Positions 8,602-64,000 of a stretch of DNA of 64,000 nt are shown here, piece by piece. The notes below the pieces were generated by a model that saw only the letters and a program-made list of their open reading frames with translations, did no database searches and was not told where the DNA came from. The translations under genes were made by a program, and so were the position numbers. The DNA comes from Dictyostelium discoideum. Taxonomy: Eukaryota. The stretch is taken from contig CM000152.2 in the NCBI GenBank assembly GCA_000004695.1, positions 288,001-352,000 on the forward strand, read 5' to 3'. Positions within the stretch are counted from its first letter, which is position 1, and each line of letters begins with the position of its first letter.

Positions 8602-9542
8602 ATGGGTGCCCAAAAATTACCAATATTAGAATATCTTCAAGCAGAAAATGATTCACCATTACCATATGAAGGTGAAGATAGACCATTGGTAGTAGTTTTA
8701 GGTTGGATGGGATGTCGTCGTGAACATTTATTAAAATATGTTGACCAATGGAGAAAACGTGGTTTCAATACATTTTCATTTTGTTCAAAACCAATTCAAT
8801 TGTATTGTATCATTATTTTAAAATAATTTGTAAATATTAAATAAATACTAACCCTTCCCCCTTCCCCCTTCCCCCTTCCCCCTTCCCCCTTCCCCCCTTT
8901 TTTTTATTTTTTTTTTTTAAAATATTTAGATTGGTTCCAGGAGTAATTCAAAATAAAGGTGATGAAATGTTAGAACAAATTAAAAAATATTTAAAAGAGA
9001 ATAGAAATTGTAAAAGTGTAATATTTAATGCATTTTCAAATGGTGGTGGATTTTATTATGCACATATGATTCGTCAAATTCATGAAAGAGAGGATTGCAA
9101 GTGGATGGCTCCTTTGGTAAAGGGAACTGTGTTGGATTCGTTGCCTGCAATTAGACCATTATCCATCTATTCAGCATTCCGTTTAACTAGTCCAAATATG
9201 TTTGTAACTTTCTTATTAGCATTGGTAGTACCATTATTTGTAGTTTTATTTTGGAGTAAGATGTCATCGTATCAACAAATTTTAACCTCAAAAAAGAATC
9301 AATGGCAACATTTAATTTTCTATTCAAAAGCTGATACTATAGTTCATTCTGATGATATCGATAATTTAGTTGGTAAAATAAAGAATAATTTATCAGATGT
9401 CAATCATCTAGATTATAAATGTTTCGACGATTCACCACATGTTCTCCATATGAGATCACATCCAAAAATATATGAAGATAAATTAAATCATTTCGTTACT
9501 TCAATTAAAAATTCAAATTTGAAAAAATTACAAAATAAATAA
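8602..9542 (+). CDS. TMEM53/DUF829-family membrane protein, two exons of about 8602..8801 and 8930..9542.
   Basis: Exon 1 encodes MGAQKLPILEYLQAENDSPLPYEGEDRPLVVVLGWMGCRREHLLKYVDQWRKRGFNT.., which matches the PLV(I/V)LLGW.G....L.KY TMEM53 motif. A GTATTG donor lies at about 8802 and a TAG acceptor at about 8929. Exon 2 continues in frame to the TAA at 9542. Confidence 0.7.
8855..8907. repeat. (CCCCCTT)n heptanucleotide microsatellite, about six units, inside the TMEM53-like intron.
   Basis: A C5T2 repeat is read directly from the sequence. The complementary strand is (AAGGGGG)n. Confidence 0.8.
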
Positions 9543-9892: not shown

Positions 9893-14229
<4,337 letters not shown>

Positions 14230-33234: not shown

Positions 33235-37752
<4,518 letters not shown>

Positions 37753-44447: not shown

Positions 44448-46836
44448 CTCTCTCCTTATTATTAAATAATAATTATTATTAGCATTTGATTTAAATGGTA
44501 AAAAACCTACCAAAAGTAATGTTGTAAGATTATTATTAAATAGAACTAATTCTGGAAGCAATTTATTATCAAAAAGAAGAACTTCAGAGACAGGAGATGA
44601 TGATAGTAATTCTAGTGTTGGTTTATTGAATAACAGTACTGGTAGTATAGGTAAAATGAATACACCAGAATCATCACCCAAATCATCATATATTCTAAGT
44701 AGTAGTATTGGTAGTGGTGGTAGTGGTGGTGGAGGTGGTAGTAGTGGTAGTCTTCAAAATTTAGATAGTGCTAGTAATAATAGTAGTGGCCCAAGGAGTA
44801 GAAGTGGTAGTCTTGGTAAAAATAATAGTAGCCAACAAAATAATAATAATTTAATATTAGACCCAAATTTTAATAATATTGATAAATCATTATGGACTGT
44901 TAGATCATTAAAAGAACATTCAAATCTTGTTGATATTATGGAAAGAATTAAACCAGCAAGTAGAGCCATTTCATTTGGTCAAATTTATGCAAGTGAAGAA
45001 ACTCAATTTGAATTTGATCCAGTTATTGGTCGTGATAATATTTTACAATTAATTTTACAACATTTACAATTTGAAGGTTTAATGGACTCTAGAAAAATTT
45101 TAGAAGAGGAAGCTAAAATTCAATATCCAGAATATACATTCAATGAATCAAGATTAGTCACCTTATTACGTGCTGTCATAAAAGATTCTGATAAAGTTTT
45201 CGATCTAACTCTAAATGATAGAGATAAAGATTCTCAACAAAAATTAGAAGAACATTTAGCATTCCTTGGTTTATTCAAAGATGAATCTCAAACTAATATG
45301 GTTGAAGATGTAAATATCTATGATGAACCTGAAAATTCAAATATTATATATGTAGATGAAAAAGATAATGATAAACCTTCAAAAGATTCACCAACAACAG
45401 CAACAACAACAACGACAGCAACAACAATTGCACCAAGTACAAGTATTAATAATTTATCAAGTTTATCAGTTAGTATAAGTTCAAATAATATAAATAATAA
45501 TAATAATAATAATAATAATATAAATAATTTAAATAGTACACAATTAATTAGTAATACACAACAACAACAAGCAACACCAAATACACCACCACAAGGTTTA
45601 AAATCAACACAATCAATTACAGGATCAACTGGTACATTAGGACCACAAGTTAAAGCAGCATCATTAAATAAATTAGTAATTTTATTAACACCAGAGAATA
45701 ATCATGATTTAGAGTATACAAAGACATTTTTATTAATGTATCAATCATTTACAACACCAGAGATATTATTACAGAAATTGATTCAACGTTATCATGTACC
45801 ACAAAAGGCAGGTCAATCAGTTGCAGAATGGAGACAACGTTCAACTCATATTCAACTTCGTGTACTAAATGTATTGAAAACTTGGATCAAAGATTATTTC
45901 TCTGATTTCTCTGAAAAGTTAATACTTGCCATTAAATCATTATTGGAATCAATGAGACAAACTGGTAATATGTCTTATGCAAAGGTGATTTCCGATGCCT
46001 TGAATTCAGGTTTAAAGAAAAGTGGTCGTAATAACACGGTTTTCACAGTTTCAGCACCCGAGCCTAAAGTACCTAAAAACATTTGGTCTCACAATTTAGA
46101 CATTTTCTCTGTGGATGAAGAGGAGATCTCTAGACAATTGACCTTGATGGACTTTGAAATCTTTTCAAATATTAAATCAACTGAACTTTTAAATCAGTGT
46201 TGGAATAAACCAAAACTACGTCACCGTTCTCCAAATGTTTTAGAATTAATTGGTCGTTTCAATGAAATCTCTCAATGGACTGCCACTTCGATTCTCTCAT
46301 GGCCCAAGGTTAAAGACAGAGCTAGAATCATGGGTAAATTCATAAAGATCGCTGAATACTGTATGAAGCATTTAAATAATTTCAATACTTCAATGGCAAT
46401 TCTTTCCGGTTTAAACGCTTCCTCAGTGCACAGATTAAAATTCACAAAAGAGGAATTACCAAGACACACTCAACAAGTTTACACAGAGTTACAATTTCAT
46501 CTAAGTTCAGCCCAAGCTTACAAAGAGTATCGTGCTTTATTAGCCAAGGCTAATCCACCATGTTTACCTTATCTTGGTGTTTATTTAACAGATTTAACAT
46601 TCTTTGAAGAAGGTAATCCCGATTTCATTCAAGGTTTTATCAATTTCGGTAAAAGAAAGTTAATCTATGGTTCAATCTCAAATGTTCAAAGTTTTCAAAA
46701 TACAAAATATAATTTACAACCTGTTTATCAAATTGCAAAATTATTAAAAGGTTTTAAACTTTTAGAAGAAAATGAACTTTATACAAGATCAATGTCTTTT
46801 GAACCAAGAAATAAAGAAAGAAGTGAAATTTTATAA
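44007..46836 (+). CDS. Ras guanine-nucleotide exchange factor with a LisH motif, a RasGEF N-terminal (REM) region and a CDC25-homology RasGEF domain. About 820 aa, three exons of 44007..44024, about 44247..44349 and about 44483..46836.
   Basis: An 18-nt first exon (ATGTCAAATCCAGTCTGT, MSNPVC) is followed by a GTATGT donor. Exon 2 starts after a TATAG acceptor (ISNSTNGSSNS..SPISKAS). Exon 3 contains ORF 44626..46836. The LisH motif is ILQLILQHLQFEGLMDSRKILEEEA. The CDC25 domain runs from LTLMDFEIFSNIK to GNPDFI and includes the conserved ..N.....AI...L..S..RL..T...L...... block. Confidence 0.8.
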
Positions 46837-46995
46837 AATTATAAAAGATTATAATCTTATTATTAATAGAATAAAAATAAATAATAAAAATAATAATAAT
46901 AAAATAATAATAAATAATAATAATTAATTAATGTAACAGTAACAATTTTAAATAAAATAAAAAATTAAATAAAGTAATAAATAATTCAAAGTTTG

Positions 46996-47026
<31 letters not shown>

Positions 47027-47062
47027 TTGAATTATCAAAATAAATTATTTATTTAAATAAAT

Positions 47063-47396
47063 TTATTTTGGACAACATTTTTTGTCACATCCACATGTTT
47101 TGTTACATGTGTTTTCACATGAGCATGAAGAGCATTTACATTCTATTTGTTGTTCTTTTGGACATGAACAACTATCTTTACAACAGTTGCAGTTGTCTTT
47201 AGTTTTGCAGCATTTACAACAGTTTGCCTGAATTGTTTATTTCAATAAAAATAATAATAATAAAAAAAATAAAAGAAAATAATAATATTAAGTATTAGTT
47301 TTAAATATTAATGGTTTAGATAATAATATATATAAAAAAAAAAAAAAAAAAAATAAAAGATAAATTAAATATATAATTTTTATGTGAACATACCAT
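47063..47396 (-). CDS. Cysteine-rich metallothionein-like microprotein of 54 aa with 19 Cys. Two exons, the first being ATG alone. The spliced product is M / ANCCKCCKTKDNCNCCKDSCSCPKEQQIECKCSSCSCENTCNKTCGCDKKCCPK.
   Basis: ATG at 47394..47396 is followed immediately by a GTATGT donor. A 164-bp AT-rich intron ends at a TTCAG acceptor at about 47228. Exon 2 is 47227..47063 and is 35% Cys in CC, CxC and CxxC clusters, with no aromatic residues. It is a GC-richer island. Confidence 0.55.
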
Positions 47397-48191
47397 TTTT
47401 TTATTTTTTATTATTATCTGTTTAAAATTTTAATATATTTAAAATGTTTTTTTAAATTTTTTTTTTTCGTTCTTATACTTTTTTTTTTTTCCTTTTTTAT
47501 TAAATGAAAATTTAGTAAAAATTAAAATTAAAATTAAAATTTAATAAAAATCCTTTTTTTGGAAATTTCACCCACATTCTAATATTTTCATAAAAAATAT
47601 TTTCACAATTTAAAAGACACACAAAGAAAGAAACTTTTGGAAATTTGAAAAAAAAAAAAAAAAATAAAAAAAATAAAAAAATAAAAAAAAAATAAAAAAG
47701 TTAATTTTAATATTATAATAAACAATGATACCATATTATTGTAATAATTATAAAATTTGAAATAAATAATATTTTTTTTTAAAATAATATATTATTTTTT
47801 TTTTATTTTAATTTAATATTTTCAGTTTTCTATTTTTATTGTTATTATTATTATTTTTTTTTTTAAAGAAATTTAAAGTTACCAAAATTAGGGAATTTAA
47901 ATTAATCCTGATGAATTGTAAACATTACTTTGATATTAAAATTTTTTTATTATTAACAAAATTGATAAATGAGTGATGGATTATTTTTTATAAGGGAATA
48001 ATTTTTTCATCTTGAATATTAACTGAGAATCTTATTTCTAATTCACCTCTTTCATTCAAAAAATCTTGTAAAACTTTTCTTGATTCTGTAAAACTATTAC
48101 CCAACCCAAATTTCTCGATTCTTCGAAATCTATTAGAAGCAATATTAGTATTAAACATCTTTAAATAAATTTATAATAAAGAGAATATACG

Positions 48192-49549
48192 CTATTTACC
48201 TTGATGATATGGTCCAAATGATATCACAGTGGCAGTTGAATCATCTGGTGGAATTAAAGAAAATGAAAACATATATTTTAAGAGTATATCGGATCTTGTT
48301 TTTCTCATTAAATATATACCAAGCTTTCCTTTATTTCCGGTATTGCCTTTTGGATAAATCCTAATATTAAATTTGTGAGATCCCACTTTAAAAACATTTG
48401 ATTCTTTATATTTTTCATGGGTATATAATGCACTAACACTTCTATAGTCAGGAATAATCCATTTGTTACTGTATTCCATCTCTTTAAAACCATTCTGTTT
48501 CAAAACATTTATTTCCTTTTTCAATTGAGTATAATCACAAAGGAGGATGTTAAGTTTTTGATTAATTTCTTCCATTTTTTTTTCTTGATTTAAAAAACTT
48601 TGATTATCTTTTTTTATTATTTCATTTTGATTCATTAGTTTTGTGACTGAATGTTCTAAAGAGTGAATTTTCATTTTTGATCTAGGAAAAAGTTTTCCAC
48701 ATAAAAATTCTTGACAAATAATATTAATATCAGACAATCATCATTTATATGTTTAGTTTTTGTATCTCTTTTAATCATAATTTTACAATGAGAGCATTCT
48801 ATTAAATATTTTGTGCAATGTGTTTTATGATGATCAGATAATGACGATCTTTGAATATTACTATTACAATATACACATTTTGAATATACTTTTGAACATT
48901 CATTTTGATGTTTGTCTGAATCCTTACTAAAAAACTTAATTAAACATAAATCACATTGCAATATTCTTGATTCACAAACTTTATAATGATTCTCTAATTC
49001 ACTAAATTTCATTACACCATGATTACATAGATCTTGATGTAATGTTTGATTGCTATTATTAATAGCAGGTAAACCCAACATGTTGAGTCTAAATACATTT
49101 TCGTTTGAATTTGGACAAAAAACCAATCTGTCTTTTAACCAATTAGAATATTCATTTTCCAAAAATCTATTTCTTGATAATTCTGAAATAGAAGAAATTG
49201 GTGTTTTACAAGTCATACACTTTTTATTTGTACTTAAATATCTTTCCCAACAACTTCTACAAGCTAAATGACCCTTTTTCCAAAATTATAAATATTATAT
49301 GGTTAGAATAAATAATGTTAGATTATTAATAATATAATTTATATTTACTTCTTTGCATTGAAGAGCTTTTGGTTCACTTCCAATAAATAATTCTAAACTA
49401 CAAATAATACATTCATATTTTTCTTCATCTGAATCAAATAAAATATCTTTTATTTCATATTTAATTGGAATTGCTGTTTGTGTAATTCTTGTTGGAGATG
49501 TTGCGTTGTTTACATGATTTAAAATACCGAACATTTTTTTTAAAGACAT
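48192..49549 (-). pseudogene. Array copy A of the TRAF-like RING/MATH gene. The RING exon is intact (49295..49549), but the main exon is split into two frames (48671..49216 and 48192..48737). This is probably a frameshift pseudogene.
   Basis: Exon 1 encodes ..KYECIICSLELFIGSEPKALQCKE. Exon 2 translates colinearly with copy B up to ..TKHINDDC. A 1-nt length difference relative to copy B at about 48725 then shifts the frame. The TRAF zinc fingers, coiled coil and MATH domain continue in the other frame (MSDINIICQEFLCGK...WIIPDYRSV...IRIYPKGN..). Confidence 0.55.
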
Positions 49550-50476
49550 TAAAAGAACAAATATAATAAAAAAGAAAATTCTAAGACATTAAAAGAACAA
49601 AAATAAAAAAAAAAGAAAAAAAAGAAATATAATAGGAAATGGCAGTTTGTGTTTTTTAAAAAATTTTTTTTTTTAATTACGAAAATAAATTTGATATTTG
49701 ATTTATTTATTATTGATTATCTTGATCAAAATTAAATTAACAAATAATAAATCTTTAAAAATTTAATTGATTAGACCATGTAAAAAAATTAGTATAATAA
49801 AAAAAAAATTAAGATAAAATATTATATTTAATTTTTTATGTGAACATACCATTTTTTTTTTTTAATTTTTTTTATTATCTTTTGTAATATCTTTTAATTG
49901 TTTTTAAAAAATTTTTTTATTCTACTTGAAGTATACTTTTTTTAATTTTTTTATTCCACTTGAAGTATACTTTTTTTAATTTTTTTTTTTTTTTATGAAG
50001 TTTGATATAATATTATAATAAACAAAGATTATTGTAATATTATAAAATTTGAAATAAATAATTTTTTTTTTTTTAAATCAATATATTGTTTTTTATTTTA
50101 ATTTAATATATTTCATTTTATTTTTATTACTATTATTTTTTTCAATCAAATTTAAAGTTACCAAGATAGAGAGTTCGAATTAATCCTGATGAATTATAAA
50201 CATTAGTTTTATATTAAATTTTTTTTATTATTAACAAGACTAATATATGAGCGATCTATTAATTTTTATAAGGGAATAATTTTTTCATCTTGAATAGTAA
50301 TTGAGAAACTTATTTCTAATTCACCTTTTTCATTCAAAAAATCTTTTAAAACCTTTCTTGAATCTGTAAATACATTAGTACCACAACTCAAACTTCTAGA
50401 TTCTTCGAAATCTATTAGAAGCAATATTAGTACTTATTAACTTCTTTAAATAAATTTAAAATAAAGAGAATATAAA

Positions 50477-51827
50477 CTATTTACCTCTATGGATTGGTCC
50501 TAATGATACTTTTGTAGCAGTTGAATCTTCTGGTGGAAGTAAAGAAAATGAAAACATATATTTTAAGAGTATACCATATCTTGGTTTCCTTTCTAAAAAT
50601 ACACCAAACTTTCCTTGTTTTCCGGCTTGACCATTTGGATAAATCTTAATATAAAATGTGTGGGATCCCACTTGAAAATCATTTGAATTTTTACTCTTTT
50701 TATGAGTATATAAAGCATTAAAACTTCTATATTCAGGAATAATCCATTTGTTACTGTATACCATCTCTTTAAAACTGTTCTGTTTCAAAACAGCTATTTC
50801 ATTTTTCAATTGAATATAATTATTAAGGAGGTTGTTAAGTTTTAGTTTAATTTCTTCGATTTTTTTTTCTTGATCCAAATTTTGATTATCTTTTTTTATT
50901 ATTTCATTTTGATTCATTAGTTTTGTGACTGAATGTTCTAAAGAATGAATTTGCATTTTTGATCTAGTAAAACGTTTGCCACATAAATATTCCGAACAAG
51001 TAATCATAATTTCTTCACAATCATCATTTATATGTTTTGTTATTGTATCTCTTTTAATCATAATTTTACAATGAGGGCATTCTATTAAATATTTTGTGCA
51101 ATGTGTTTTATGATGATCAGATAATGATGATCTTAGAATATTACTATTACAAAATTCACATTTTGAATATACTTTTGAACATTCATTTTGATGTTTGTCT
51201 GAATCCTTACTACAAAATTTAATTAAACATAAATTACATTGTAATATTCTTGATTCACAAGCTTTATAATGATTCTGTAATTCACTAAATTTCATTGCAC
51301 CATGATTACATAGATCTTGATGTAATGTTTGATTGCTATTATTAATAGCAGGTAAACCCGACATATTGAGTCTAAATACATTTTCGTTTGAATTTGGACA
51401 AAAAACTAGTCTATCGTTTAACCAATTAGAATATTCTTTTTCCAAGTATCTATTTCTTGATAATTCTGAAATTGAAGAAATTGGTGTTTTACAAGTCATA
51501 CACTGTTTATTTGTGCTTAGATATCTTTCCCAACAACGTCTACAAGCTAAATGACCCTTTATTTAAATGATTTTAATTAAATTATATGGTTAGAATAAAT
51601 ATTGTGATATAATTGATAATTTAATTAATATTTACTTCTTTGCATTGAAGAGCTTTTGGTTCACTTTCAATAAATAATTCTAAAGTACAAATATCACATT
51701 CATACTTTTCTTCATCTGAATCAACTAATATATCTTTTATTTCATATTTAATTGGGATTACTTTTGGTGTAATTTTTGTTGGAGATGTTGGGTTGTTTAT
51801 GTTGTTAATTAGATTTATAAAATCAAG

Positions 51828-51830
<3 letters not shown>
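50477..51830 (-). CDS. Array copy B. This is the intact TRAF-type E3 ligase-like protein, with an N-terminal C3HC4 RING, TRAF-type zinc fingers, a coiled coil and a C-terminal MATH/TRAF-C domain. About 425 aa, two exons of 51830..about 51636 and about 51556..50477.
   Basis: The RING spans the intron (CDICTLEL..EPKALQC / GHLACRRCWERYLSTNKQCMTC). There are three TRAF-ZF units (C..C....H.....C patterns such as CESRILQCNLCLIKFCSKDSDKHQNEC). The MATH signature is WIIPEYRSF..FQVGSHTFYIKIYPNGQAGKQGKFGVFL. A GTAAAT donor and an AAAG acceptor give a 79-bp intron. Confidence 0.8.
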
Positions 51831-51860
<30 letters not shown>

Positions 51861-52299
51861 CTAATAATGAGTATGAACAAAAATTAAAAAATAAAAGAAA
51901 AAAAGAAGAATAATTGGAAATTATGGTGAGTGTTACTGTTTGGAGGATGTTAAAAAAAAAAAAAAAAAAAAAAAAATAAATCAAAAATTAATCGTAATTT
52001 ATTTTAAAAAAAAAAAAAAAAATTTTTTTTCAATTTTGATTTTTGATTTATTATCTAGATTTAAAGCACAATGAAGCAGTTAGGGAATTAATTTTTTTTT
52101 TTTTGGGATATTTTTTTCTTTTTTTGGTGTCACGAAATCAGGAAAATAAAAAAAAATTAAAAATTAAAAATATATATTAATTATTTTTTTTTTTTTTAAT
52201 TTTACATTTTTATATTTTATTTATTTTTATATTTTTATTGTTTTTTTCAATGAAATTTAAAATTTCCAAAAATAGAGCAATTGATAATTTTTTATAATG

Positions 52300-53780
52300 G
52301 AACAGTTTCTTCACCTTTAATATTAATTGTGAAATATAATTCTAGTTCACCCCTTTCATTCAAATAATTTTTTAAAACATTTGTTGAATCTGTAAATTCA
52401 CTAGTACCCCAAAAGAAATTTTTAGATTCATGAAAATCTAATAGAAGCAAAATTAGTATTTTTTTTTTTCATCTTTAAATAAATTAATAAAAATGAGAAT
52501 AAACAGTATTTACCTATATAGCATGGTTTCGATTTAATAATTTTTTTAAAATTTGAATCATTTGGTGGATTTTTAAAAAATAAAATATCATGTGTGCCAT
52601 ATATTGGCTCTCTAACTAATAATACAGCAAACTTTCCATGTTTTTTGGCCCTGCATTTGGATAAATCCTAAGATTAAATTTGTGAGAGCCCACTTTTAAA
52701 AACATTTGAATCTAAGTGCTTTTAATAATTCACTAACCTTTTAATAGTCATGAATAACCCATTTGTTTGTATGTCCTATTTCTTTTAAAACCATTATCTT
52801 TTGTATTAGTTAACCCATTTTGATTCATTAATTTGGCTACTGAATGTTCTAAAGAATGGATTTGTCTTTTTGTTCTCTTAAAACTTTTGCCACATAAATA
52901 TTCTGGACAAAAATCATTATTTCTTCACAATCATCATTTAAATGTTTTGTTTTTGTATCTCTTTCACTCACCATTTTACAATAAGTACATTCTATTGTAG
53001 ATCATCATTATCTGATCATCATAAAACTTATTGTAAAAAAAATTTTTTACAATAAGTTTTATGATGATCAGATAATGATGATCTTATGATATCAGTATTA
53101 CAAAATTCACATTTTAAAAATACTTTTGGACATTCATTTTGATGTTTTTCAGAGTCCATACCAAAAAACTTAACTAAACATAAATTACATTGTAATATTT
53201 CTAGATTCACAATTTTGAATATGTTTCTCTAATTCACTGAATTTCATTACTCCACGAATACACAAATCTTAATGTAATTTTTGATCAATGCTATTATTTT
53301 CATTATTAATAGCAGGAGAACCTAACATGTTGATTCTATATAAATTTTCAATGGAATATGGACAAACAACTAATCTATTTGATAGTCAATCAGAATATTC
53401 ATTTTCAAAAATTCTATTTCTTGATAATTCTGAAATTGGCATTTTACAAATCATACAATCTTTTTTTGTTCTTAAATGACTTTCCCAACAATTTGAACAA
53501 ACTAAATGACCCTTTTTAAAATATATATTTGGTTAGAATAAATGATGTGTTATATTAAATAAAAAAATTGTATATTTACTTCTTTGCATTGAAGAGCACT
53601 TGCATGATTTCCAATAGAATATTCTGAATAATAATTACATTCATATTTTTCTGCATCTGAATCAACTAAAATATCTTTTGTTTCATATTCAATTGAGACT
53701 GTTATTGGTGTAATTTTTGTTGAAGATGTTGTGTTGTTCAAATGATTAAAAATACCAAACATTTTGTTTTTTCCAACCAA
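52300..53780 (-). pseudogene. Array copy C. It is a decayed RING/TRAF/MATH pseudogene with multiple frameshifts and an internal 84-bp palindrome.
   Basis: Only short ORF remnants survive. The RING exon is 53550..53780 (..KYECNYYSEYSIGNHASALQCKE). A TRAF-ZF fragment is 53028..53210 (..ILQCNLCLVKFFGMDSEKHQNEC..DHHKTYCKKF). The MATH region at about 52300..52760 is recognisable only at the DNA level. Confidence 0.5.
53000..53083. repeat. Perfect inverted repeat (palindrome) with 41-nt arms and a 2-nt AA spacer. It is made of TRAF zinc-finger coding sequence inside decayed copy C.
   Basis: GATCATCATTATCTGATCATCATAAAACTTATTGTAAAAAA at 53000..53040 is the exact reverse complement of 53043..53083. 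Confidence 0.85.
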
Positions 53781-53829
53781 AATAAAAAAAAAATAAAAAT
53801 AAAAATAAAAAAGTTCTAGTTCGGAGGAG

Positions 53830-54200
53830 GAAAAAAAAAAAAAAAGAAATCAAAGGAACTTGTTTTTAGTGTGATGGTTTTGAGGATGTTAAAAAAAGAA
53901 ATAAAGTAACTGGTAGTGAGTATTATGGTTTTAAGGGTGTAAAAAATTAAAAAAATAGAAATAAAAGAAATGTTGGTGATTATATAGTTTTAAACTATAT
54001 GGTTTGTAGGATGTGAAAAAAAGAAATAAAAAAAAAGAAATCAAAGAACCGTTGGTGATTTTATAGTTTTATTGTTTTAAGGATTTTAAAAAAAGAAATA
54101 AAATATCTGGTGGTAAATATTATGGTTTTGAGGATGTAAAAAAAAAAAAAAAAAAAGAAATCGAAGGATTTTATAGTTTGCATGAAGTTAAAAAAAAAAA
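53830..54200. repeat. Minisatellite of about six tandem units of 55-65 bp, with consensus roughly AGAAATAAAGNAACTGGTGGTGANTATTATGGTTTTGAGGATGTAAAAAAA. It lies immediately 5' of array copy C. Single copies of the same unit lie 5' of copy B (about 51895..51950) and copy A (about 49625..49665).
   Basis: The repeated blocks all end in ..ATGGTTTT(G/A)AGG(A/G)TGT(T/A)AAAAAA. This is read directly from the sequence. Confidence 0.6.
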
Positions 54201-54269
54201 TTTAAAAAATAAATAAAATTTTTCTCAACTTAATTTTAATTATACAAAATATATTCAACTTATTTTTTA

Positions 54270-54760
54270 ACACTATTGATTAATGGTAAACCCATATTGA
54301 GTCCAAATGTATTTAATTTGGAATATGGACAAACAACTAATCTATTATTTAACCAATTAAAATATTCATTTTCTAAATATCTACTTCTTGATAACATTAA
54401 AATTGATGGAATTGGAGTTCTGCAAATCATACACTCTTTTCTTAAAACTAAACATTTTTCCCAACAACTTTTACAAGCAAAATGACCCTATTTTTTTTTA
54501 AATTATATAAATAAATAATGTAGTGAGTATAATTATTATATTTTAATTATTAGATATGTATGTATTTATTTATTTACTTCTTTGCATTGAAGAGCTTCTG
54601 GTTTTTTCTCATTAATTAACTCTGAATTACAAATATCGCATTCATATTTTATTTCACTTGAATCAACTAATATATCTTTTATTTCATATCTAATTTGGGC
54701 TGGTATTGTTTCAATTTTTGTTGGACCTCTTCTATCCATTAGAGATACGACCCTAATCAT
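54270..54760 (-). pseudogene. Array copy D. It is a truncated 5' fragment with the RING exon and the start of exon 2 only.
   Basis: ORF 54566..54760 encodes ..IKYECDICNSELINEKKPEALQCKE. The antisense ORF 54276..54485 covers the first half of a RING/ZF exon (GHFACKSCWEKCLVLRKECMICRTP..). The unit ends at about 54270 with no TRAF-ZF or MATH part. Confidence 0.45.
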
Positions 54761-54895
54761 TTTTTTTTAAATCCAAAATTGTGTAATTTAAAAATTTAAT
54801 GGCAACTATCAAAAAAAAAAAAAAAAAAAAAAATTAATTTATTTTCGTTCTTCAATATTTAAATTAAAATTGTGTTAAAAGTTAATATATGCTGA

Positions 54896-54926
<31 letters not shown>

Positions 54927-55306
54927 AGATCTTTTAACAAATTCTAAAATCCAATTCTTTAAATCCAGTAAATTTTAACTTTATTCAAGCAAAAAAAAAA
55001 AAAAAAAAAAAAAAACTCTATATCGGGTATTTTAATTTTTTTTTTTAAAAAAAAACCATTAATTTTATTTTTAATTTGTTAATTAAAAGGAATTTTTTGT
55101 TTTATAATTGATTGTTATAATATAAACACAAAAATAAATTAATATCAATTTTTATTTTTTGAATTAAAATTATCATCCATTCAATAATTAATTGGTACTG
55201 TTGTTGTCTAGAGAGTATGAAAAAAACCATTGTGGTTTTTATTTTAATCATTTTTTTTAAATCTTTATATAAAAATATATTTACAAAAATGTAAATACCA
55301 TTTTTC

Positions 55307-55670: not shown

Positions 55671-58615
55671 TTAATTTAAAATACCTCTACCAAAATATTC
55701 AGAAACAGTAGTGAAACCATCAGGAGAACTTCTTAATAATTTAAAGAATTGATCATGTTGATTGGCGGAATCAGCTTGTGATCTTTTAATCTCTTGAATT
55801 CTTTTATTAGCACCAGCACAAGAAGGACATTCTCTTTCATTCTCACCGAGACATCTTTGATGGAAAGAATGTTGACATAAAAAGTGAACACTTGGTAAAT
55901 CCAAAGCCAATAGACAAGCGATACATTTAGTTTGTTGGAAAATTTTAGAATTTGTACGAAGTTCGTTGATTTCATGTCTCATCTTTTCAGTCTCATCGGC
56001 GTATTGTCTGATTTGAGTGTAATCCTTATCGATTTGTTGAGTTTCTTGAGACAATCTTCTAGAGATATAATCTTTGATGACGGCCAAAGTGGTATTCTTA
56101 TTTTGTGATAGGATTTGTATTACCAAGAGTGGTGGAATGAGATTCTCCTTATCGATGTTGGTCAACACCTCGATGATCTCATCTTGACAATCCTGTTTAT
56201 TGGTTGAAAAGAATGACAATGCTCTCACCCAAAGGTTTGGATCTTTTACACCATATCTCTTGCAAGCTTTGATCAAGCCATCGTAATCATTATTCTCCAT
56301 ATGGTACTCGATGATCTCATTGAATAACTCTAACTTTTCATATAAATACAATACACCCTCCTTCCAATTATGAACTTGTACTAAAATCAATGCATGATCT
56401 TGATCAAATTTTGATTTTGGATTCGTTAAAAATTCATATGCTTTCGCTTTTCTCTTTATTCTCTCATCATCAGTTTGATTGACATCATCTCTCAAATATA
56501 ACTCTAACAATGTATTATAAATTAATGATGATTCATTATTACCTTGTTGTACCATATATTCTAAAAATTTAACTAACCAATCTGCTTGTGATACAAAAAT
56601 ATGAATAAATTCTTCTGGTGCTGATTTTTGTTTAAATCCAATATTATTATTATTATTATTATTATTATTTTGATTATTATTATTACTATTATTATTTTGA
56701 TTATTATTATTTGTTACATTTGTTACAGTTGTTGTTGTTGTTGTTTGATTACTAATTGTTAAACCATTTAAATTTAAAGCTGTTAAAGAATCAAAAGCTT
56801 GAACTGGTTGATAATTTGTACATAATTTCATTAAGACACCAGTAGTTTCTTCAGGAATTTCAGAGACTAATTGTTTACCATATTTTTTAAGATTTTTATC
56901 AGCTTCTTCCCAATCAAGTGTTTGAATGTAATCTAAAGCTTTTCTATATTCATTGAGATCCTCCAAGAGAATTTTAAGATACCAATCGTGACGACTATGT
57001 TTTGATGCTAAAAAGAGTGCACGATCGAAATAACCACCTTGACGACAAACTTTAATTGCTGTCTCGACATCGAATGTACCATTGTCTGTCATAATGAAAT
57101 GATCGAGTTTCTTTACATCCTTTAATTTGGTATAACAATTCAAGAGTAGTGTAGTGTGGTTGGCTGTGGCTAAATTCTTCTCATGCAATGCTTGAATGTA
57201 TGATGTAAGATTATGAATTCTTTGAGCGTCCAAGAACTTTCTAATGACATAAGATGGCTCCAACTGACCAATCGTGCAAAGGTATTGGGTGATGGCGCCG
57301 TCGTAGTCGCCCTTGGCATACAACCTGTCGCCATACTCCCTATAGACGTCTGCAATGGCACTATTGTCATAATGCTGTGACTTTGCTAAATCGATAGCCA
57401 CTTGATATGAATGCTTCTTAAACAAGGTTTCCAACTTGGTTTGTGTGTCTTTCTCCTCCAATTGAAACACCTTACCATCGGCACCAAATATGAAAATTGA
57501 GCCCCACTCACTGCAAATATGAGACACTGTATCGAACTTCTCTGTGAAACCAATATATTTATTCTTTAAATCATAGATATTCAATACATTGTTTTTCGTG
57601 TTTTGCACCATAACCGATGGCGACCCAATACTACCTGTCTGACTACCCAACCCACCTATGCTATTCTGTCCGCCTACCACAGCACCTGGGAACAAGGCAT
57701 TGGTGTTGTTAGTGTCATATCCAATCACTACCAAATAGGAACGGAACCACAGCACTTTGGTCTTCACACCTGTGAAACCAAAACACGGTCCTCTTCCATC
57801 CACATTATAGAAATAAATTGCATCTGATCTTGCTATAATTGGCGACCCATCGTCACTCATTAAAAACGAGCCGATGTCACCCCCCTCATCGTCTATTATC
57901 GTCTCTTGATCTTTATGTGCTGTATGATAGGTTATAACATGTGTTGTTGTCACTACAAACAACACTGCACCCGCACTCGCACTCTGTTGACTCTTTGTTG
58001 GGAAAAACCCTAACCCTGTAATTGGCGAATCGTTTGGTACTTTGATAATCTTTTGTTTAATAACTTTATCTCTAAATATATCTGCTCTAATTATAATGAT
58101 TTCACCATTTGCTAAACCAACGATAATCTGTGACAAATCTTCCAACAATGTGAAACATGTTACTGTAACTGATTTCTCTAATTTAATAGATCTAACACAA
58201 ATTGGTTGTTCATTCTTATCAGTTTTATCAAGATTCCAAATTTTTAAGATTGCTGCACCACCAATATCATCATGACCAACTGAAGAAAGGAAATTTCTCT
58301 CCTTTAATTGATAAATTAATGATACTGATTGTTGATATGCTTGAAATGATGATATTCCAAATTCTCTATCTACAAAATTAATAAAACCTTCTGCATCACC
58401 AATAATTAAACTACCACGACCACTAGTTGTACATGTAATTGATAATTTCTTTTTTTTTTTCAATAATAATAATAATAGTAAAAAATAAATTAGTATTAAA
58501 TTCTTATTAATATTATTTTTTTGTGAATACATACTTGTAACGAAGATCCATCTTCTTTTTCAACCTGTTTTACAGTCTCAATATCAAAGAATGTGAATCT
58601 CTTCCAATTATTCAT
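55671..58615 (-). CDS. vps11: Vacuolar protein sorting-associated protein 11 (VPS11/PEP5), a HOPS/CORVET class C core subunit. About 953 aa, two exons of about 58615..58535 and about 58448..55671.
   Basis: Exon 1 is MNNWKRFTFFDIETVKQVEKEDGSSLQ, with a GTATGT donor. Exon 2 begins KLSITCTTSGRGSLIIGDAEGFINF. These match the metazoan VPS11 N-terminus (RRFVFFDKE..SGRGSLVFGDMEG.IWF). A long block of near-identity to the VPS11 central region is present (YREYGDRLYAKGDYDGAITQYLCTIGQLEPSYVIRKFLDAQRIHNLTSYIQALHEKNLATANHTTLLLNCYTKLKD). The C-terminus is a RING-H2 (CIACLLALDLPSVHFLCQHSFHQRCL...CPSC). Confidence 0.9.

Positions 58616-59204: not shown

Positions 59205-64000
<4,796 letters not shown>

Follow-up and report, generated by a model that had tools for sequence, protein, structure and literature searches.

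Within a stretch of 64,000 nucleotides (nt) of chromosome 3 of Dictyostelium discoideum (contig CM000152.2 of assembly GCA_000004695.1, positions 288,001 to 352,000; hereafter the window), positions 47063-47396 of the minus strand carry a two-exon gene that is composed of an exon comprising the ATG start codon only, an intron and a cysteine-rich exon and that encodes a peptide of 55 residues, 18 of which are cysteines. Judged by comparison of the locus across species, it is close to certain that this gene exists as a spliced protein-coding gene. More likely than not, though with appreciable room for other functions, it constitutes a genuine, independently transcribed gene of the D. discoideum group, and its product, a basic peptide of 6.0 kDa, would be cytosolic and belong functionally to the metallothioneins. 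The evidence that carries this interpretation consists of the conservation of reading frame, cysteines and splice sites in four genomes on the one hand and of the composition and architecture of the encoded peptide on the other.

Structure and Codon Usage of the Gene

The open frame of the second exon reaches only about two codons 5' of the splice acceptor and does not contain any internal ATG, so that the start codon has to be supplied by splicing. The resulting product reads MANCCKCCKTKDNCNCCKDSCSCPKEQQIECKCSSCSCENTCNKTCGCDKKCCPK. Precisely this string had been given in an earlier reading of the window that was based on its letters and a list of open reading frames (in the following, the sequence-only reading), where it was counted as 54 residues with 19 cysteines; our recount yields 55 and 18. 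The splicing of an ATG-only first exon to a cysteine-rich exon, as proposed in the same reading, is corroborated by donor, acceptor and frame being kept in four genomes and by an identical gene model for Dictyostelium firmibasis. Exon 2 stands out as a GC island (32.7%) from flanking intergenic DNA with a GC content of 6-11%. Shortly downstream of the stop codon an AATAAA sequence follows, not only in D. discoideum but also in Dictyostelium citrinum and D. firmibasis (coordinates of all features are given in Table 1).

Codon choice in exon 2 is distinctive. All five Asn codons are AAC compared with 7% AAC in the other open reading frames of the window, a background that is inflated by poly-Asn tracts, and two of the three Asp codons are GAC compared with 10% GAC in the other frames. 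A codon bias of the AAC/GAC type is that of highly expressed Dictyostelium genes, and codon usage in Dictyostelium has reportedly been described by Sharp and Devine in 1989.

Conservation and Purifying Selection

Orthologous loci were retrieved via the neighboring genes gefI, encoding RasGEF I, and VPS11. In three further genomes, i.e., those of D. cf. discoideum, D. citrinum and D. firmibasis, the gene is present at the same position and in the same orientation. The donor (ATG followed by GTATGTTCA) and the acceptor (AG followed by GCAAAC) are identical in all four genomes, while the intron enclosed by them varies in length from 69 to 166 nt and shows 35-62% identity between species, compared with 88-93% for exon 2, which aligns without any gap. 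All 18 cysteines are invariant in the four genomes and the same holds true for every lysine, with the sole exception of a K55R exchange in D. cf. discoideum. Amino acid changes are few and exclusively of the types D/E, S/T, N/T or K/R, and third codon positions take between 11 of 12 and 17 of 19 of the nucleotide differences in exon 2. The ratio of non-synonymous to synonymous differences per site (pN/pS) amounts to 0.04-0.14 for the cysteine frame, whereas it exceeds 3 for the +1 frame of the same exon. Synonymous divergence (dS) lies between 0.55 and 0.97 when D. discoideum, D. citrinum and D. firmibasis are compared. Reading frame, splice sites and purifying selection are kept across species, as is characteristic of a bona fide spliced coding gene.

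Annotation and Transcript Evidence

The annotation of D. firmibasis contains the same 55-residue model as a separate gene, in which the first exon measures 3 nt and the intron 69 nt. This annotation was generated with MAKER and then checked manually; the UniProt proteome of D. discoideum and transcripts assembled by genome-guided Trinity from mRNA-seq of development are the sole stated evidence (PMC11193728). As protein alignment has difficulty in recovering a first exon of a single codon, the D. firmibasis model most likely rests on a spliced transcript, and we infer that the gene is transcribed in D. discoideum itself. No gene is called at the locus in two de novo annotations, namely those of D. 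discoideum assembly GCA_054883475.1 and of the D. cf. discoideum assembly. For D. citrinum, a 590-residue model (L002 9251..11864, minus strand) runs into the orthologous exon, reads it in the +1 frame and terminates there (with ...RQTAVNAAKLKTIVTAVKKVAHVQKNNK and a stop codon). Since pN/pS for this frame is above 3, this model is probably an annotation error with a mis-merged terminal exon.

A published list of novel models derived from RNA-seq, which is confined to models of at least 101 residues, contains none at this position of chromosome 3 (PMC5282741), and a text search for identifiers of the form DDB_G02786xx returned nothing relevant to the locus. The locus may already be present as an uncharacterised entry in dictyBase. 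A scan of JGI metagenomes and metatranscriptomes produced 84 pattern matches, none of which was confirmed, and a word-indexed search of 5.8 billion proteins gave no match to the peptide. By exact look-up, the peptide was not found in a collection of 15 billion proteins; human MT2A (61 amino acids) and the annotated D. firmibasis orthologue are equally missing from this collection, and the absence of the peptide is therefore uninformative. Genes with one-codon first exons and short cysteine-rich products are a class that present pipelines drop or mis-merge and that is invisible to large clustered protein databases, and negative results for short cysteine-rich proteins in such collections are no evidence of novelty.

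Against this background, explanations that deny the existence of the gene can be weighed. The notion of a chance open reading frame in non-coding DNA could draw on its shortness, its one-codon first exon and the fact that it went uncalled in two annotations of the D. discoideum clade, but its likelihood is close to nil in view of an intact frame with 18 of 18 cysteines in four genomes at dS values of up to about 1, of splice sites kept around a diverged intron, of an exon coinciding with a GC island and of non-random codon choice; the conservation of frame, cysteines and splice sites together with pN/pS effectively refutes it. Very improbable, too, is that exon 2 is part of a larger, different gene model or that coding takes place on the opposite strand. 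The larger model, which the sequence-only reading had named as a refuting case, does occur in the automated annotation of D. citrinum in the form of the 590-residue protein terminating within the orthologous exon, yet the frame used there is the very one for which pN/pS points to an error. In addition, some 500 nt lie between the 55-residue gene of D. firmibasis, which is annotated as a gene of its own, and the end of VPS11, its next upstream neighbor. On the opposite strand, a His-rich open reading frame (SHPHVLLHVFSHEHEEHLH..., 47082..47231, plus strand) exhibits pN/pS values of 0.07-0.24. They are low because the wobble positions of this antisense frame coincide with those of the cysteine frame, and pN/pS alone therefore cannot fix the coding strand; as sole proof of the strand it was rejected. 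However, the antisense frame lacks an ATG in every species compared and is interrupted by an in-frame stop in D. firmibasis. With splice signals, TATA-like box, conserved upstream blocks and AATAAA all residing on the minus strand and with an antisense frame devoid of ATG, the coding strand is settled as minus.

Properties of the Peptide and Probable Assignment to the Metallothionein Class

The encoded peptide has a mass of 6.02 kDa and an isoelectric point (pI) of 8.3 and consists of 32.7% Cys (18/55) and 18% Lys. Phe, Tyr, Trp and His are absent and M1, A2 and I29 are the only apolar residues. Six CxC, four CC and one CxxC motifs are present, values that are indistinguishable from those for metallothioneins from lobster, crab and human, and the metallothionein-like composition pointed out in the sequence-only reading is hence confirmed. 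The cysteines are split into two sets of nine (residues 4-23 and 31-53) by a conserved cysteine-free linker of seven residues, PKEQQIE, and those in the N-terminal half are spaced as CC-x-CC-x5-C-x-CC-x3-C-x-C. Hydropathy, assessed by inspection, peaks at 0.27 over nine and at -0.27 over 15 residues. From the latter value and the presence of just three apolar residues it follows that the peptide lacks a hydrophobic core, a membrane segment and a signal peptide; the N-terminus is hydrophilic, and the absence of a signal peptide had also been stated in the sequence-only reading. AlphaFold, run on the single sequence and metal-free, did not return a confident fold (predicted local distance difference test score, pLDDT, 57), a model outcome that is compatible with metal-dependent folding, yet no evidence for it.

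Classical metallothionein criteria according to Fowler/Kagi include a mass below about 10 kDa, richness in Cys, few or no aromatic residues or His, conserved Cys motifs, a high metal content in metal-thiolate clusters as revealed by stoichiometry and spectroscopy, inducibility by metals or stress and a role in metal tolerance. Low mass, a high Cys content in the absence of aromatic residues and His, and conserved CxC, CC and CxxC motifs are all found here. As far as can be judged from sequence, the peptide is a member of the metallothionein class by composition and architecture and falls outside every sequence-defined metallothionein family.

Among characterized proteins, the crustacean metallothioneins, i.e., lobster MT-1 (PDB 1J5M/1J5L) and blue crab MT-1 (PDB 1DME/1DMC), the sequences of which were verified against PDB, provide the closest architectural parallel. 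They comprise 57-58 residues compared with 55 here and share with the peptide 18 cysteines in two 9-Cys domains, a Cys content of about 31-33%, a richness in Lys, the lack of aromatic residues and His, an N-terminal xxxCCK and a C-terminal CCP(K). By analogy, each 9-Cys half should bind three divalent ions. On the other hand, Smith-Waterman alignment scores are just 1.7-2.0 standard deviations (SD) above shuffles and the Cys spacing differs. As the test for homology failed, the likeness is architectural only and, given that the phylum is unrelated, it is most simply explained by convergence. Human MT2A, representing the vertebrate metallothioneins (Pfam PF00131), resembles the peptide in 33% Cys, in CKC, CxC and CC motifs and in the lack of aromatic residues, and vertebrate metallothioneins likewise feature two domains, a short Lys-containing hinge and a 9-Cys beta-type half. 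They differ in possessing 20 cysteines and an 11-Cys alpha domain, whereas the peptide has 18 cysteines and no such domain, and the alignment with MT2A scores 0.6 SD above shuffles. Fungal copper thioneins such as yeast CUP1 and Neurospora CuMT are also small cytosolic Cys-rich peptides of microbial eukaryotes; they confer Cu tolerance, are lineage-restricted and are non-homologous to animal metallothioneins. The CUP1 sequence compared contains 12 Cys in 60 residues, a single cluster and some aromatic residues and His, in contrast to 18 Cys in 55 residues for the peptide, and the alignment score lies 0.15 SD above shuffles.

For D. discoideum, a single gene, DDB_G0288281, has been annotated as a putative metallothionein and its status has been called open (PMC3777012), and in November 2019 a single GenBank entry existed for a metallothionein from Dictyostelium (PMC7216689). 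DDB_G0288281 stems from the same organism and falls into the same proposed functional class as the peptide but represents a different locus: its neighbor by identifier, DDB_G0288283, is located at chr5:1345755-1346834, which places it on chromosome 5. An identity of the two was rejected, as the gene studied here resides on chromosome 3. The statement in the sequence-only reading that classical metallothioneins are not well documented in dictyostelids fits the account given in PMC3777012, which refers to a negative assay and to this lone candidate.

Proposed Function and Competing Explanations

On the basis of these features, the apo-peptide would be disordered and devoid of a hydrophobic core, and folding would occur only by 18 thiolates wrapping around metal ions, most likely in two clusters, one per 9-Cys half, with PKEQQIE acting as a hinge. 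Each half may accommodate approximately three Zn(II) or Cd(II), or more Cu(I), in line with the 9-Cys domains of the beta type found in metallothioneins from crustaceans and vertebrates. The peptide would thereby buffer or sequester cytosolic Zn, Cu or Cd. The conserved promoter and an Asn/Asp codon choice unlike that of neighboring genes suggest regulated, possibly high expression. Metal binding, its stoichiometry, the cytosolic location and the physiological role are all predictions from the primary structure.

A further-reaching proposal, which we consider possible but rather doubtful, is that Dictyostelium possesses a metallothionein that is restricted to its lineage and represents a new sequence family, so far seen only in the D. 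discoideum/D. citrinum/D. firmibasis group, that has been missed by gene predictors as well as by the thiol assay and that aids in metal handling. The predictors would have overlooked the gene owing to its one-codon first exon, and a thiol assay performed on amoebae could miss the peptide if its expression were limited to certain developmental or stress conditions. The peptide might then contribute to the unusual tolerance toward Cu and Zn, or to metal handling during development or the killing of bacteria.

Besides the ambiguity of pN/pS with respect to the strand, several results weigh against the interpretation as a metallothionein gene. A Pfam-A scan of the peptide did not reveal any family at E ≤ 10, phmmer searches found neither a PDB chain at E ≤ 10 nor a match among 1.84 billion representative proteins, and the homology search suggested in the sequence-only reading thus failed to connect the peptide with any metallothionein family in these three collections. 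When the peptide is aligned with seven metallothioneins by Smith-Waterman, its scores exceed those for composition-preserving shuffles of the query by no more than 0.2-2.2 SD. With alignment scores near shuffle level, it is composition and pattern that carry the metallothionein assignment. As a polyphyletic origin of metallothioneins is widely accepted, lack of homology is no argument against metallothionein function. Furthermore, no orthologue adjoins gefI in Dictyostelium purpureum, Polysphondylium violaceum, Tieghemostelium lacteum or Acytostelium subglobosum (gefI-flanking regions) and none adjoins VPS11 in D. purpureum or P. violaceum (VPS11-flanking regions). Finally, a chemical assay applied to Dictyostelium is cited as negative for metallothionein activity (Burlando 2002, as referred to in PMC3777012 and bioRxiv 10.1101/356949).

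The main rival of the metallothionein interpretation accepts the gene as real and ascribes a non-metal role (acylation, redox buffering or cross-linking) to the Cys-rich peptide, which could serve as a cysteine-string-like S-palmitoylated membrane anchor, as a thiol redox sink or as a keratin-associated-protein-like disulfide cross-linker in spore or stalk maturation. We regard this as unlikely, albeit as an alternative to be taken seriously. The N-terminal CCKCC clusters next to Lys have the appearance of acylation sites, and the upstream GTGTGTC, TGTGGGTG and CC(A)6-7GG-like blocks bear what we take to be a resemblance to developmental elements. The assay cited above as negative for metallothionein activity would also fit a non-metal role. 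However, the cysteines are distributed along the whole peptide in CxC and CC motifs with polar spacers and in a 9+9 arrangement with a hinge, which is the layout of metallothioneins and not that of a single Cys string, and the sequence does not give any hint of a membrane or extracellular site. Keratin-associated proteins likewise carry C-rich low-complexity domains, while the CK class of such domains, in which Lys is the second residue, occurs preferentially in metallothioneins (PMC11132505). A secreted disulfide-rich peptide of the knottin, antimicrobial or toxin type, an alternative of the kind already raised in the sequence-only reading and one for which the high Cys content and the net basic charge (pI 8.3) could be adduced, appears improbable: the conserved N-terminus MANCCKCCKTKDN is hydrophilic and does not qualify as a signal peptide, hydrophobic or aromatic residues for packing a disulfide-rich mini-fold are absent, AlphaFold did not yield a confident fold and no Cys-rich family was matched in Pfam or PDB.

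Phylogenetic Range

Synteny around gefI and VPS11 is broken in the more distant species examined. Accordingly, the gene is either limited to the D. discoideum/D. citrinum/D. firmibasis group or has been relocated elsewhere in the other genomes. Because an orthologue beside gefI or VPS11 is lacking in distant species, the gene may be young and lineage-restricted. Divergence of the D. discoideum/D. citrinum/D. firmibasis group has been dated to roughly 50-100 million years ago (PMC12745789). In D. purpureum (L004 8702..14456; L009), CGI-121 and a PI4-kinase gene are situated downstream of gefI, and Cys-rich open reading frames are present neither near gefI nor near VPS11.

The Upstream Region

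Conserved, collinear blocks upstream of the gene are indicative of a conserved and dedicated promoter. An element of the form (G/A)TATAA(G/A)A is conserved and collinear in the three aligned species. Closer to the start codon, TAAACAGATAAT constitutes an exact 12-mer that is common to the same three species (D. discoideum, D. citrinum and D. firmibasis), where its spacing from the ATG corresponds, and probably sits in the leader or the transcription-start region. Farther upstream, the block set at 47546..47647 represents a candidate promoter or enhancer. Within the conserved footprint, AAATTTCCAAA is present twice, and where D. discoideum reads CC(A)7GG, D. citrinum has the CArG-like CC(A)6GG and D. 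firmibasis CT(A)6GG; GTGTGTC, GTGGGTG and TGTGGGTG blocks also occur. The GTGTGTC and TGTGGGTG blocks are reminiscent of developmental G-box/CAE elements, the CC(A)6-7GG-like block of CArG sites and the core of TAAACAGATAAT of a GATA site, similarities that we treat as no more than a lead. A search of Rfam did not reveal any RNA family in 46500..48500 at E ≤ 1, and the conserved upstream blocks are therefore not a known non-coding RNA.

Significance for Metal Handling in Dictyostelium

Dictyostelium is a leading model for metal-based cell-autonomous defense including the poisoning of phagocytosed bacteria with Zn and Cu. The organism withstands Zn and Cu concentrations that exceed physiological levels 50- to 500-fold (bioRxiv 10.1101/356949), and the working picture in the field assumes a lack of classical metallothionein activity, with buffering being accomplished by the contractile vacuole and ZnT transporters (PMC3777012; bioRxiv 10.1101/356949). 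A conserved, probably expressed gene of the metallothionein type provides a concrete target for testing cytosolic thiolate buffering in amoebae, and a gene that was missed by several pipelines makes the assumed absence of metallothionein activity directly testable. The gene does not represent a new kind of system.

Genomic Context and Feature Coordinates

The RasGEF I gene (gefI, Q8IS15) is convergent with the Cys-rich gene in a tail-to-tail arrangement with 3' ends 226 nt apart. The window also holds genes for uracil-DNA glycosylase (UNG, P53766) and diphosphomevalonate decarboxylase as well as DDB_G0278611. On the other side, a thioredoxin gene and several genes for zf-TRAF/MATH-domain proteins (~48192..55000, minus strand) separate the Cys-rich gene from VPS11 (55671..58532) in D. 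discoideum and D. cf. discoideum, while in D. firmibasis a gap of only about 500 nt separates the end of VPS11 from the Cys-rich gene downstream of it. The intervening TRAF/MATH genes look like a lineage-specific expansion or insertion.

Table 1. Coordinates of the Cys-rich gene, its upstream elements, its orthologues and further Cys-dense frames. Positions refer to the window unless a locus is given.
Feature	Position	Strand	Remarks
Exon 1, ATG start codon alone	47396..47394	minus	AAAAATG context, read from sequence
Intron, 166 nt, GTATGTTC...ATTCAG	47393..47228	minus	GTATGT...CAG ends; AT-rich, 9% GC
Exon 2, 165 nt, 54 codons (ANCCKCC...KKCCPK) plus TAA (47065..47063)	47227..47063	minus	32.7% GC
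AATAAA, putative polyadenylation-type signal	47053..47048	minus	begins 10 nt past stop codon
TATA-like box AAAAAGTATAAGAA, putative	47483..47470	minus	~80 nt upstream of ATG
Block TAAACAGATAAT with GATA motif	47424..47413	minus	18-28 nt upstream of ATG
Upstream block set	47647..47546	minus	exact collinear matches in three species; surrounded by AT-rich unalignable spacer
CAAATTTCCAAA	47647..47636	minus	part of conserved upstream block set
TGTGTCTTT	47621..47613	minus	part of conserved upstream block set
GTGGGTGAAATTTCCAAAAAAAGGATTTTT	47575..47546	minus	part of conserved upstream block set
Orthologue, D. cf. discoideum	L011, 21268..21601		98% amino acid identity (K55R); intron 166 nt
Orthologue, D. 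citrinum	L002, exon 2 at 9335..9171, ATG at 9456		96% amino acid identity; intron 118 nt
Orthologue, D. firmibasis	L003, 8892..9128		91% amino acid identity; intron 69 nt
Repeat-derived Cys-dense frame	13725..13844	minus	inside or antisense to larger open reading frame
Repeat-derived Cys-dense frame	33980..34072	plus	inside or antisense to larger open reading frame
Repeat-derived Cys-dense frame	37076..37195	plus	inside or antisense to larger open reading frame
Repeat-derived Cys-dense frame	60084..60203	minus	inside or antisense to larger open reading frame

In a six-frame scan, exon 2 proved to be the sole non-repetitive Cys-dense open frame in the window. The remaining Cys-dense frames are translations of simple repeats, i.e., poly-Cys, (DC)n and CCS runs, and are not metallothionein-like.

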